Shown here: positions 754 to 47,052 of the stretch, piece after piece
Numbering within the stretch: the stretch's first letter is position 1
How the letters are laid out: every line of letters starts with the position of its first letter
Assembly: GCF_003334305.1 (NCBI RefSeq)
Contig: NZ_QOWS01000004.1
DNA from: Escherichia coli
GTDB lineage: Bacteria; Pseudomonadota; Gammaproteobacteria; Enterobacterales; Enterobacteriaceae
Direction: 5' to 3' (one strand)
DNA length: 64,000 bases
Translations under genes and position numbers: made by a program
Notes under the pieces: generated by a model
Told to the model about the DNA's origin: nothing
What the model saw: only the letters and a program-made list of their open reading frames with translations
Databases searched by the model: none

Positions 754-1963
<1,210 letters not shown>

Positions 1964-6612: not shown

Positions 6613-9312
6613 TCAACCAACCTTGCCAATCAATCCTTCCGTAGCCGAATACCCGCAACTTTCGTCATCGTTGACTAAAATCACGTTTGCCATCTCCGGA
6701 TCTTGTCGCTGTTCAATGCACCACAGCCTGAACGCCTCTCCCTCCAGTAAAGAAAACTCATCCCGATGTTTTTTCCACCAGCTTCGGCGCACTCTGACAA
6801 CGCTCATTTCCCATGCGTGAGCACCGGTGGCATAAGGCTTCACCACACCGTCAATACAGGTAGCCAGCCACAGGGAAACAGACTCCTCAGCCAGACGTGT
6901 CGACAGTTTTTCCGGGAGGTAATCGTTGATATTGGCGGCATAGCCGGGCCTGAAGTTCAGCACAAACTTTTTAGCCATTGCGCGATCGCAGTAATATTTG
7001 CCCACTTGCTCCTGCTCGCTGCGGGCAAATCCTTCCGGCATTACCACGTCCTCACCGTAGACGGATTCAATAAGAAGCCGGGCTGCGTATGGCATCTGAA
7101 TAGCACCTTGCTCACGCAGCACACGCTGCGTCAGCCAGATTCGCCCATGATCGGGATAGACAAATGCACTGTTACGCATGGCACTGCCAAACCATTCGTC
7201 GCCAGGAGAGTCGTCCCAGACGGGAGCCAGAATCAGCAATTCAGGGGGGGAACGCTCGTCCTTTCCGTCACGCTTTAACTGACCATTAATATCGCGGATA
7301 TGCCGCTGTAATCGTCCTGCTCGCTGAATCAGCAAATCAACAGGGGCCAGGTCGGAGATCATTTCGTCCAGGTCAATATCCACGCTTTGCTCAATTACTT
7401 GTGTACAAACAATGACTTGCGACGCTCTCTGTAAACTACAATATTTACCAAAGCGTGCCAGTGTCTCCGTTTCAATTCGCTGGCGATCGCTAAAAGCAAA
7501 GCGGCTATGAAAAAGTGAAAGGCTGGAAGCAGGAATGACGCCGCGGGCAAGCAGCTGACGATGAACCTTAATAGCGTCATCGACAGAATTCCGGATCCAG
7601 GCGATGCATTTCCCCTGACTTACCGCCGATTCGATACGCGCAATACACTCTTGTTCACTATGAAGCCAACCCACGCTGACGCTACGCTCAACGTCTTTGC
7701 GCGTCGCTACCCGGTGTGAGTTCACATCGGATTTCGTGACATGCGTCAGCCAGGGGTAATCATCCTTTTCCAGGAACGGAGCTTCTTGCAGGCCCTCTGT
7801 ACCCCGCGCAAAGGCAGCGACGAGTTTGTCGCGCTGCTGTTGAGATAACGTGGCAGAAAGCAAAATAACGCTGTTTCCGCCACGCGCCTGCCGCTCGATC
7901 AACCCTTCAAGAATGCACGACATGTAAGCGTCACAGGCGTGGATCTCATCAGCCAGCAGGATTTTGTTACTCAGCCCCAGAAGCCGCAGATTATTATGTT
8001 TGAACGGCATCACCGCCATCATCGCCTGATCCAGCGTGCCGACGCCAATTTCAGCCAGCAACGCCTTCTTGTTACTGTCGGCAAACCAGGCCGCACATCC
8101 CTGACTGAACGTTTGTTCATCCGGTTCTTCTGACCCGACTAAATCACCAGACCAGAGTGATTCATTAAAGCGGTCCATTAATGTGCGGGCACTATGTGCC
8201 AGCACCAGGCTGGGGCGGGATTCTGGCGAATAGAAAGCAAGCCAGGTTTTGACCAGCCGATCGTACATGGCATTGGCCGTTGCCATTGTTGGCAGACCAA
8301 AAAACAGCCCCTGAGCTTTCCCCGCAGCTATCAACCTGTGCGCCAGGATAAGCGCCGCTTCTGTTTTACCTGCGCCAGTCACATCTTCCAGAATAAATAA
8401 CTGCGGTCCTTGCTGGCTGATATCCAGATCCAGCACCTTTTGCTGTAACGGTGTCGGATTCTCAATAAAAGGAAACAGCGTATTAATTCCGTTGAAAGGC
8501 GCGACTTTTGCTTTTAGAGGAAAGACGGTTAAGGCGTTTTGAGCCTGAATTAAAGTTTTCTGCCAGTAACCTTTAATATCCATTGGGTGTGCGACGCGTG
8601 GAAAAAATCGCGTTGACGAACCCGTCCAGTCTGCGAGCACGACGGTTGCAGAGATATACCAGGAAAGGTGTTTTATAAGTTCAATGCCCTCATCATCATC
8701 CCAGAATGCGGGGATCTCTATGAGCGGAAACAGTGGTTTGATTTCAAGGAGAAAATCTCGTGCTGCAGCTTTGTCTTCAGGCAGAAAATTATCCAATTCA
8801 TCCATACGATCAGGGGGCCGACCATGATGCCCTGTCGTCACGGGCATCCACATTTCTATCACTCGCCTAAGTTTGCGCGGAGAGAGCGAAGATGAAGGAA
8901 GTAACTCCTGACATTCACTTAAATAATGATTCCACAACCAGTAGCCCAGCGTTGAATGAGAGATTTTTTCGTAATTTTTTCTGGCACCTTCCTGAATCTT
9001 GAGTTCAGGGGGCAGGTAAAGTTGTTGAAAAGAGCGGGCAAATTTTCCAATATCGTGCCAGCACAGCAACCAGGCGAAAAATTGAGCCGCCTGTTCCTTG
9101 TCAGAAATCCCTAATTGACGAAAATAATCAGCCAGCCCGAAGCAATTTCTTTTAACCATTAAATAGCCCATCGCGGCTACATCCAGCGAATGCCAGCAAA
9201 GAAGGTGATAGTCGTCGCCCCCGTCTTTCTCGCCGCGTCGGGTTTTTCCCCAGAAATCAAAAAAAGTCACAATATTTTTATCCTTCAGTAAACTTAAAGG
9301 ATATTTACGCAT
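6613..9312 (-). CDS. cas3: Cas3 HD nuclease / SF2 helicase
   Basis: 899-aa ORF; HD-type N-terminus (LLCWHSLDVAAMGYL), helicase motifs (DVTGAGKTEAA, DEIHACD); heads the cas operon. Confidence 0.95.
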   Translation of the reverse strand: MRKYPLSLLKDKNIVTFFDFWGKTRRGEKDGGDDYHLLCWHSLDVAAMGYLMVKRNCFGLADYFRQLGISDKEQAAQFFAWLLCWHDIGKFARSFQQLYLPPELKIQEGARKNYEKISHSTLGYWLWNHYLSECQELLPSSSLSPRKLRRVIEMWMPVTTGHHGRPPDRMDELDNFLPEDKAAARDFLLEIKPLFPLIEIPAFWDDDEGIELIKHLSWYISATVVLADWTGSSTRFFPRVAHPMDIKGYWQKTLIQAQNALTVFPLKAKVAPFNGINTLFPFIENPTPLQQKVLDLDISQQGPQLFILEDVTGAGKTEAALILAHRLIAAGKAQGLFFGLPTMATANAMYDRLVKTWLAFYSPESRPSLVLAHSARTLMDRFNESLWSGDLVGSEEPDEQTFSQGCAAWFADSNKKALLAEIGVGTLDQAMMAVMPFKHNNLRLLGLSNKILLADEIHACDAYMSCILEGLIERQARGGNSVILLSATLSQQQRDKLVAAFARGTEGLQEAPFLEKDDYPWLTHVTKSDVNSHRVATRKDVERSVSVGWLHSEQECIARIESAVSQGKCIAWIRNSVDDAIKVHRQLLARGVIPASSLSLFHSRFAFSDRQRIETETLARFGKYCSLQRASQVIVCTQVIEQSVDIDLDEMISDLAPVDLLIQRAGRLQRHIRDINGQLKRDGKDERSPPELLILAPVWDDSPGDEWFGSAMRNSAFVYPDHGRIWLTQRVLREQGAIQMPYAARLLIESVYGEDVVMPEGFARSEQEQVGKYYCDRAMAKKFVLNFRPGYAANINDYLPEKLSTRLAEESVSLWLATCIDGVVKPYATGAHAWEMSVVRVRRSWWKKHRDEFSLLEGEAFRLWCIEQRQDPEMANVILVNDDESCGYSATEGLIGKVG

Positions 9313-9480
9313 ATATTAAAAATTATCTGTGATATATATCATTCAATAAAATATTTACATTATGAATAATCAAATAATTTTCATCCGTAATATATATGAA
9401 TAATAAACATAGGCATAATATTCACATAAACAATATAAATTAAAAAAGGGTGCAGGAGACCAAACCATCACAATTCAGTA
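9313..9480 (-). promoter_or_regulatory. Extremely AT-rich cas3 upstream region (probable cas3 promoter, H-NS-type target)
   Basis: About 130 nt of roughly 85% A+T (tatatattaaaaattatctgtgatatatatcattcaataaaat...) immediately 5' of the cas3 start codon. Confidence 0.5.
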
Positions 9481-9500
9481 CGCGGGGTTTTACCCCCGCG
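9481..9500 (-). other. Stem-loop 6 nt downstream of the hok-like stop codon (mRNA 3' structure)
   Basis: CGCGGGG-loop-CCCCGCG inverted repeat; no U-tract follows on the minus strand, so not a canonical intrinsic terminator. Confidence 0.35.
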
Positions 9501-9506
9501 TGGTGG

Positions 9507-9659
9507 CTACTTCTTCGATTCGTAAGCGAGAACTGCCTTAAACTCCATACCACGTTCTCTGATACTCAACTCACACAACGAGTCGCCTACCATCAGCGTG
9601 AATCCCAGTACTGTAAAACACAGCACTATGATTGCCACAAGGGCATATTTTGTCAGCAT
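9507..9659 (-). CDS. Hok/Gef-family type I toxin (50 aa)
   Basis: Hand translation of minus strand: [50 protein letters not shown]; hydrophobic N-terminal helix plus the Hok signature SLCE-x-E-x-A-x-AYES; GGGAGG SD 6 nt upstream; same position as sokX in K-12 as recalled; not in the supplied ORF track (under 60 aa). Confidence 0.8.
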
Positions 9660-9757
9660 GTCTTGCCTCCCTGCAAAGAAGAGACTAACATTCGAATTGT
9701 TTGGGTTCGAACGTAAGCCTCAGGTTGATAGAAATATCGCCTGGGGCTTTTGTCCAT
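9653..9757 (-). CDS. mok-like upstream ORF (34 aa), translationally coupled to hok
   Basis: ATG preceded by GAGG; [34 protein letters not shown]; its TGA stop overlaps hok codons 1-2 (ACATGCTGA), the arrangement typical of hok/mok loci. Confidence 0.45.
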
Positions 9758-9865
9758 CTGGAACCTCGCGAATGCTTAACGCCAGACAGCCTCAAGCACC
9801 CGACGCCATTCTATACCTGATAATTCTTCCAGCGGCGTTCACGTTTAAAATCAGGAATACTGCTC

Positions 9866-9906
9866 GCAAAATAAAAACGCCCCCATCATTTCTGACAGAG
9901 GCGTTT
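9866..9906 (-). terminator. Probable cysJIH operon terminator
   Basis: On minus strand AAACGCC-18 nt loop-GGCGTTT followed by TTATTTTG, 18 nt after the cysH stop. Confidence 0.45.
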
Positions 9907-9923
9907 AATTTATCCGGCAATAT

Positions 9924-10658
9924 TTACCCTTCGTGCAATCCACATTCCCTTTTTAAGCCAAAGAAACGTGTTTCTTCTTCCGACATGCCAGGTTCCCATT
10001 TACGGGTTGTATGGGTATCACCGACCGATAAATATCCTTCATCCCATAATGGGTGATATTTCAGGCCATGTTTTTGCAGGTACTGATAAATAGTTCGGTT
10101 ATCCCAGTCGATAATCGGCAGCACTTTAAATACGCCACGCTGAATTGCCAGCACCGGTAAATTGGCGCGACTGCCGGATTGTTCACGGCGCAGGCCAGCA
10201 AACCAGGTTTGCGCGTTAAGTTCTTTCAGAGCCCGGTTCATCGGTTCGACTTTGTTGATGTCATTGTACTTTTCAATGCCTTCAACGCCCTGTTCCCACA
10301 GTTTGCCGTAGCGTGCTTCCTGCCAGGCGGCGCTTTCGGTAGCGCGGTACACTTTCAGGTTGAGCTTGAGTTTGTCCGTTAACTCGTCAATAAAGCGGTA
10401 GGTTTCCGGGAACAGATAGCCGGTGTCGGTGAGGATCACCGGAATATCCGGGTGAATCTGATTCACCAGATGCAGGCTCACCGCCGCCTGAATGCCAAAG
10501 CTGGAAGAAAGTACATATTCACCGGGCAGATTATCCAGCGCCCAGGCAACGCGGCCTTCAGCGTCCAGTTTTTCCAGTTCGGCGTTAGTTTCTGCCAGCG
10601 CCAGAATGCGATCTACCTTCGGCAGTTCGTTCAGGGCGTTTAGATCGAGTTTGGACAT
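9924..10658 (-). CDS. cysH: Phosphoadenosine phosphosulfate (PAPS) reductase
   Basis: 244 aa from [19 protein letters not shown]...; the longer ORF to 10811 runs across the REP and is rejected. Confidence 0.95.
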
Positions 10659-46641: not shown

Positions 46642-46685
46642 AAAGCAACCTCAATAAGAAAAACTGCCGCGAAGGATAGCAGGAA

Positions 46686-47052
46686 TAAAAAAAGGGAGCA
46701 CTGTATTCACAGCGCTCCCGGTTCGTTTCGCAGCATTCCAGCTACTTTTGTTGCTCCCTGCTCATCCTTGACAACTTTTCCTCTGGCCTTGCGGCCAATC
46801 GTTCATCCTGAACTATTGCTTCCTGCTCACACCACCCCGATGTGATACTTCATCCTGAAGTGTCCCTGGCCTTCCTGACCCACCGAATCATCCTGACCGG
46901 TTCTCATTCTCCATCCTGGAGGTGTCCTTTAACGCGTCCTGCGTCATCCTCTTCGCTTCATCCAGAAGCCTTTCCCTGAAACACCATCCTGGTGTGTCCT
47001 GCAGAAGTGTCATCATCCTGATGTTCACTTCGTTGTCTGACTCCCTGTCGAC
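46686..47052 (-). ncRNA. csrB: CsrB small RNA (CsrA-sequestering)
   Basis: Minus strand begins GTCGACAGGGAGTCAGACAACGAAG and carries many CAGGAUG/AGGAUG GGA motifs (plus-strand catcctg repeats); ends with hairpin GGGAGCGCTGTGAATACAGTGCTCCC + U8 at 46686-46725. Confidence 0.95.

Follow-up and report, generated by a model that had tools for sequence, protein, structure and literature searches.

Introduction

The tac/fbi arrangement, in which the 5′- and 3′-ends of a full-length mRNA pair with one another, is known from hok of plasmid R1. Small toxin-antitoxin modules also occur in the company of cas genes: in haloarchaea, RNA toxin-antitoxin pairs of the CreTA type safeguard CRISPR-Cas, and depend on Cascade and a crRNA-like RNA. 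In Escherichia coli, a “hok sok system” has been described at the CRISPR-I (iap-cysH) locus in all arrangements except the cas-E2 variant, along with IS186 insertions at the GC-rich boundary that adjoins it (Almendros et al., 2014). The gene of the cysH-iap region was named hokX in a 2020 survey, after E. coli B, while a 2025 survey reported hok and sokX beside cysH in 90% of urinary isolates; both hokX and sokX also figure in toxin-antitoxin gene lists. SokX RNA has been detected under all growth conditions in K-12, the strain to which its demonstrated expression is confined. As for the chromosomal hok loci of K-12, PMC7232551 cites Pedersen and Gerdes (1999) to the effect that they are non-functional.

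This article deals with such a locus in a 64,000-nucleotide stretch of E. coli DNA, hereafter the window, where a Hok-like frame lies between cysH and cas3. It is close to certain that the frame belongs to the intact form of hokX/sokX, a chromosomal type I toxin-antitoxin module of E. coli, and it is highly probable that this identity and the general mode of action outlined below both hold; the activity of the window's own allele is less certain than its identity. The locus is already described, named and routinely annotated. Particular attention is paid here to its RNA elements, to its conservation and loss among strains, and to what its position beside cas3 does and does not mean.

The locus and its surroundings

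The window is a piece of E. coli chromosome, and it carries the cas-E1 CRISPR variant, since the cas3E1-R primer of Almendros et al. (2014) matches positions 9229-9248. A 701-bp region of it is 100% identical to E. coli strain 120899, and all 5426 complete E. coli genomes match at least part of this region. At one end of the window, downstream of cas2 (754-1047, minus strand), a CRISPR array with 61-bp spacing and at least 10 units occupies positions 19-669; it belongs to the type I-E (cas-E1) system, as its CRISPR2.1 array. Far from it, at 46684-47043 on the minus strand, lies the gene for the small RNA CsrB (Rfam RF00018, 380 bits).

The earlier note on this DNA placed an intact Hok-family type I toxin between cysH and cas3, a proposal that is borne out by profile matches, RefSeq annotation, homology with hokE and hokB, and the published descriptions. 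Along the minus strand, the order is cysH stop, cysH terminator, TAGAAT box, GGGUGC, mok-like ORF, GGGAGG, hok, GC hairpin, GGUCUCCUGCACCC, U6, spacer and cas3 (Table 1). The module extends roughly from 9441 to 9815. Its end lies 40 nt past the lower bound of 9481 given before, and these additional nucleotides hold the element at 9448-9461 and the U-run at 9442-9447, so that the former limit cuts off the last functional element. At the other side, the upper part of the range first noted (9866-9923) is the cysH terminator, and is outside the hok locus.

Table 1. Features of the hokX/sokX locus and its flanks, from cysH to cas3 (window coordinates).
Feature	Position	Strand	Description	Basis
cysH intrinsic terminator	9906-9875 (hairpin)	-	hairpin, then T-run	consensus terminator scan
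Putative hok promoter, -10 box	9808..9813	-	TAGAAT, 6 nt upstream of predicted mRNA 5′-end	inferred from sequence
Predicted full-length hok mRNA	9441..9801	-	~361 nt, GGGUGC 5′-end to U6 3′-end	RF01794 start 9801; homology end 9441
tac-like element	9788..9801	-	5′-terminal, GGGUGCUUGAGGCU; pairs with fbi-like element	predicted folds
mok-like leader ORF	9653..9757	-	34 codons; GAGG Shine-Dalgarno at ~9769-9766	sequence
SokX antisense RNA	9699..9757	+	59 nt; 5′ single-stranded tail and terminator hairpin with U-tract	homology to K-12 sokX b4701
sokT-like target hairpin in hok leader	9681..9721	-	in both predicted folds	third helix of RF01794 alignment
Sok promoter	9663..9691	+	-35 TTGCCT 9663-9668, 17-nt spacer, -10 TAACAT 9686-9691	sequence; identical in K-12
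hok Shine-Dalgarno	9666..9671	-	GGGAGG, 6 nt before ATG (9659-9657); invariant in 8 alleles	
hokX toxin ORF	9507..9659	-	50 aa, ATG start	Pfam HOK_GEF, HokE identity, RefSeq
GC-rich 3′ hairpin	9480..9501	-	ACGCGGGG-GTAAAA-CCCCGCGT (RNA: ACGCGGGG GUAAAA CCCCGCGU)	sequence
fbi-like 3′ element and U-run	9442..9461	-	GGUCUCCUGCACCC 9461-9448, then U6 9447-9442	complementary to mRNA 5′-end
AT-rich spacer	between U6 and cas3 ATG	-	128 nt	
cas3 ATG	9312	-		

The toxin ORF

The 50-residue minus-strand ORF reported before is present, its peptide exactly as quoted, and so is the strong GGGAGG Shine-Dalgarno sequence in front of it. Aligned to the Pfam family HOK_GEF (PF01848), the peptide scores 43.0 bits (i-Evalue 3.5e-11), with residues 5-46 covering the full length of the model (1-42/42). 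RefSeq annotates it as “Hok/Gef family protein” (WP_000956460.1), and the identical protein occurs in many RefSeq genomes. Its best NCBIfam match is HokA (NF007290), at 57.7 bits; this being below the curated cut-off of 89, the peptide is not HokA, and PGAP accordingly gives it the generic family name. The cut-off of 73 bits for the Hok family subfamily NF007279 is not reached either (41 bits). Among the K-12 paralogues, identity is 78% with HokE, 50% with HokA and 33% with HokB, and the residues invariant in this comparison are M1, C14, T16, L18, F20, T21, L28, E30, E39, A42 and A45. A hydrophobic membrane segment can be read at the N-terminus. Within this segment, codon 15 (window position 9616) separates WP_000956460.1, the window's protein, which has phenylalanine, from WP_000956458.1, which has cysteine. 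Genes like hokX are missed by the length cut-offs of ORF tracks.

A plasmid or phage origin was considered and set aside: of the plasmid records, only H64 was shown with 100% identity, and it is a mislabelled 4.9-Mb chromosome; the closest true plasmid among matches sampled across the list carries a Hok-family peptide that is ~59% identical.

The leader, the mok-like ORF and the promoters

Upstream of hok, the leader (9801-9644) matches the whole of Rfam model RF01794 (1-157/157) with 113 bits (E 1.4e-26), the gathering score being 59. Both this match and that of the peptide to Pfam are far beyond chance. The strand recognised by RF01794 is the hok-sense one, which is equally the case for K-12 hokB and hokE, and the match thus marks the region of overlap between leader and Sok rather than the strand of Sok. 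Placing the Sok strand by RF01794 was rejected, given that the annotated sokB and sokE run opposite to the match strand at K-12 hokB and hokE. For annotation purposes, the “sok antitoxin” strand call of this family is misleading, being opposite to the annotated sokB, sokE and sokX. The leader is transcribed in O157:H7 EDL933.

Neither the hok promoter nor the Sok promoter was reported by a consensus scan with a threshold of 9 of 12, because both score under it; the two were placed by homology with K-12 sokX, hokE and hokB. Where the window has TAGAAT as a putative hok -10 box, hokE of K-12 has TAAGAT and hokB has TAGGAT. There is no good -35 box, which fits a weak promoter. The Sok promoter scores 8 of 12, and equivalent boxes are conserved in hokE and hokB; its -35 box overlaps the hok Shine-Dalgarno sequence on the opposite strand.

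The leader also carries a short ORF, for which a mok-like coupling to hok had been proposed. In the window, both the 34-residue ORF and the overlap of its stop with the hok start are there, the TGA (9655-9653) overlapping the hok ATG inside ACATGCTGA (9661-9653), so that the ORF ends 7 nt into hok. This overlap is however not conserved across alleles. The ORF has 34 codons in four of the eight alleles sampled and 18 codons in the other four, in which a 1-nt deletion and substitutions (within 9699-9757, codons 15-19) create a TAG 40 nt before the hok ATG and leave hok itself intact. At an identity of at least 99%, the 18-codon allele is found in 1012 complete genomes, including O157:H7, while the window's 34-codon allele is found in 2330. 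What is conserved is the start of the mok-like ORF and its Shine-Dalgarno sequence, not the stop-start coupling, and a comparison of the ORF with NCBIfam gave no match. By analogy with plasmid R1, translation of hok would require that of mok; the coupling step may differ from that of R1, mok being cut to 18 codons in a common allele.

The SokX antisense RNA

On the plus strand, the K-12 non-coding RNA sokX (b4701) aligns to 9699-9757 with 56 of 59 nucleotides identical, and the 3′-end of SokX abuts the mok ATG at 9757. An antisense RNA had been anticipated on this strand at about 9700-9850. Its start and strand were rightly placed, but the upper limit overshoots by ~90 nt, the homology with sokX giving a molecule of ~59 nt instead of ~150 nt. 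The predicted fold (-24.7 kcal/mol, z -4.6) consists of a free 5′ tail and a strong hairpin, after which comes CUUUUGU. Opposite to it, the loop and upper stem of the sokT-like hairpin are complementary to this 5′ tail.

Where Sok and hok overlap, the differences between alleles are concentrated at 9700-9704 and 9714-9716, which correspond to the 5′ tail of Sok and the loop of sokT. At least three variants exist there (CCCAAAC, CGU-AGC and CCUAAGC), the remainder of the leader being nearly invariant. Such variation may reflect a diversified specificity of antisense recognition among paralogous sok RNAs.

The ends of the hok mRNA

For the predicted full-length hok mRNA, the minimum free energy fold (-132.8 kcal/mol, z -4.26) has the 5′- and 3′-ends paired. 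The duplex between 9801-9788 and 9461-9448 amounts to -21.8 kcal/mol, a value equalled by only 1 of 1000 shuffled 3′ UTRs, and the 3′ strand is the best partner of the 5′-terminal 16 nt in the whole RNA. The pairing recurs with compensatory differences: GGGUGC/GCACCC here, GGGUGCC/GGCACCC in hokB, and GGGUGUCUG/CAGACACCC in a plasmid hok-family locus, and in these last two the complementarity lies ~40-60 nt past the stop codon. This 5′/3′ pairing is the tac/fbi arrangement. Once the last 37 nt are removed, the tac-like element is predicted to form a local hairpin.

The stem-loop noted previously on the 3′ side of hok is present at 9501-9480, beyond the stop codon. As no T-run follows it, it does not qualify as a canonical terminator. 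Cas-less strains remain homologous as far as 9441, directly after the U-run. What has been described as “conserved intergenic” pieces of the CRISPR-I locus is the 3′ UTR and fold-back element of the hok mRNA.

One further interaction, a masking of sokT by the 3′ UTR, was examined and is not claimed: the predicted full-length fold pairs 9462-9477, directly upstream of the fbi-like element, with 9693-9708 at the top of the sokT hairpin, and its support among alleles is mixed. The adjacent positions 9692 and 9478 read A/C, A/U or G/U across alleles, and another pair is broken in one allele.

Proposed mode of action

By analogy with hok/sok of plasmid R1, the weak promoter would give rise to a stable full-length hok mRNA (9801 to ~9441), whose paired 5′- and 3′-ends would keep it untranslatable and unable to bind Sok. 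Slow trimming at the 3′-end would then remove the fbi-like element, after which the 5′-end would refold, exposing the mok start and the sokT hairpin. SokX, an RNA expected to be abundant, short-lived and constitutive, would pair with sokT via its 5′ tail, blocking the translation of mok and hence of hok, and marking the duplex for RNase III. Should SokX fall, mok and hok would be translated, and the membrane peptide would depolarise the cell, killing or arresting it.

Conservation and loss

Of 5426 complete E. coli genomes, 4221 (78%) contain the hok coding region and its 3′ UTR, always on the chromosome. Eight alleles, from cas-E1 strains, cas-less strains and one IS-carrying strain, were compared. 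Among the 50 codons of hok, eight vary in a synonymous manner only and one carries an amino-acid change (F15C). In the 5′ leader (9758-9801), a single site of 44 is variable, and again a single one of 39 in the segment made of the Sok promoter and the hok Shine-Dalgarno sequence; the spacer upstream of the promoter varies at 20 of 73 sites. Judged from these alleles, both the Hok peptide and the leader RNA are under purifying selection, across phylogroups, and the counts of variable sites argue for a maintained gene and RNA and against a relic.

Loss nevertheless takes place. The homology with K-12 sets in precisely at the start codon of hok (CAT, 9657); what K-12-type strains retain is limited to the stretch from this ATG upward, hence the orphan sokX of K-12. 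The cas-E2 replacement took out the hok ORF and left the hok promoter, the leader, the mok start, the hok Shine-Dalgarno sequence and ATG, and sokX, a remnant that sits ~100 nt upstream of K-12 cas3. At the other end of the gene, the GC hairpin (9480-9501) is a hot spot for IS186/IS421 insertion, and in K-12 hokE the equivalent site holds IS186. ETEC4089 and strain 300444 carry IS421 (IS186-like) at ~9485, in the 3′ arm of the hairpin, where it cuts hok from the fbi-like element. Up to ~800 of the 4221 hok-bearing genomes are without a contiguous 3′ UTR. With the hok ORF lost from K-12-type strains and IS insertions frequent 3′ of hok, the hokX locus is dispensable.

Could the locus then be a silent chromosomal relic in decay, its sequence intact but its toxin activity and Sok control of no consequence to the cell, as with the hok loci of K-12? 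The losses just described would agree with this, namely the reduction to leader and sokX in K-12-type (cas-E2) strains, the interrupted 3′ UTRs and the IS421 insertions, as would the shortening of mok in ~1000 genomes and the inactivity of the K-12 chromosomal loci, as far as PMC7232551 reports it. Silence is nonetheless unlikely, given a locus kept in 78% of complete genomes, all elements of the family present and in register, and a pattern of purifying selection in which eight codons vary only synonymously against one that is changed, and in which the leader varies at 1 of 44 sites. A maintained hokX/sokX module remains the preferred reading.

The neighbourhood of cas3

A second alternative couples hok to CRISPR-Cas, either by readthrough feeding cas3 expression or by an addiction cassette that stabilises the cas island. 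Its appeal lies in the layout, hok, the 128-nt AT-rich spacer and cas3 being collinear on the minus strand, and in the report that all cas-E1 strains carry hok sok (Almendros et al., 2014). In addition, the consensus terminator scan found only the cysH terminator and no intrinsic terminator from the stop codon of hok to the ATG of cas3, and local folds have no hairpin ahead of the U6 run. The 5′/3′ helix that abuts U6, here as in hokB, does however fit a defined mRNA end.

The comparison between strains speaks against coupling. Where cas genes are missing, the module still adjoins the convergent iap, encoding an identical Hok and having the same end at 9441, and it is therefore not a cas3-linked element; conversely, cas-E2 strains have functional cas genes and no hok ORF. 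Neither a consistent co-occurrence with cas genes nor a dependence on them is seen. In some strains, IS421 parts hok from cas3; the hok promoter is without a -35 box; and K-12 cas3 has its own CRP-activated promoter, though in E2-specific DNA that is absent from the window. The literature searches brought up nothing that connects hok with the expression of cas3, and the one study of a cas3 promoter among their results deals with K-12-specific (cas-E2) DNA. Coupling is consequently very improbable, and the position of the module beside cas3 reflects neighbourhood rather than function. Readthrough into cas3, which the earlier note thought conceivable, is pure conjecture. In its most specific form, it would have hok transcripts of cas-E1 strains run in part through the 128-nt spacer, with the supply of Cas3 partly set by the hok promoter and by folding and processing of the hok mRNA, or would have the module help to retain the cas island, and this is a shade more improbable still. 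If true, only cas3 readthrough would add to what is understood of CRISPR regulation.

As for the hok ORF being a chance open frame and no gene, its small size is all that speaks for it, and this practically negligible possibility is already refuted by the profile matches (Pfam E 3.5e-11, Rfam 113 bits), together with the 78% identity to HokE and the synonymous bias of the substitutions.

Comparison with known systems

With the CreTA pairs, the hokX/sokX module of the window shares the trait of being a small toxin-antitoxin module beside cas genes. In contrast to CreTA, it has a conventional Sok antisense RNA as its antitoxin, and strains without cas genes keep it unchanged.

With hok/sok of plasmid R1, the paradigm of the family from the Gerdes laboratory, it shares the Hok peptide, the leader ORF, the cis-antisense RNA opposite the leader and the 5′/3′ pairing of the full-length mRNA; the plasmid hok-family locus that was examined has the same architecture as well. 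Plasmid Hok-family peptides are at most ~59% identical to the window's Hok, among the matches listed. Because the window locus is chromosomal, post-segregational killing does not apply. In R1, mok overlaps most of hok, whereas the window has a short mok of 34 codons that overlaps hok by 7 nt and is variable. Another difference from R1 is that the fbi-like element of the window runs directly into U6, without a separate terminator hairpin.

Among chromosomal loci, hokX/sokX is a paralogue of hokE/sokE of K-12, and this is the closest one: the proteins are 78% identical, the mRNAs are collinear and start with the same 5′ GGGUGC, the Sok promoter has the same positions, and the same GC hairpin stands 3′ of the stop. 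The window's hok mRNA is also collinear with the hokB locus. The two modules occupy different chromosomal sites, and while K-12 hokE is interrupted by IS186 19 nt past its stop, the window locus is uninterrupted. Furthermore, the upstream ATG of K-12 hokE is in frame with hokE, whereas in the window the mok-like ORF is in a different frame from hok and terminates 7 nt inside it.

Finally, the locus is one and the same as the hokX/sokX known under these names from E. coli B (hokX) and K-12 (sokX, b4701) and as the “hok sok system” of Almendros et al. (2014), with the same site between cysH and cas3 or iap. The leader and Sok region are 96.8% identical to K-12 over window positions 9657-10000. 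K-12 is without the hok ORF and the form in the window is intact; otherwise, nothing of substance sets them apart. Beyond correct annotation, the significance of the locus is therefore small: it is the intact, widespread form of a named module that K-12 has partly lost.
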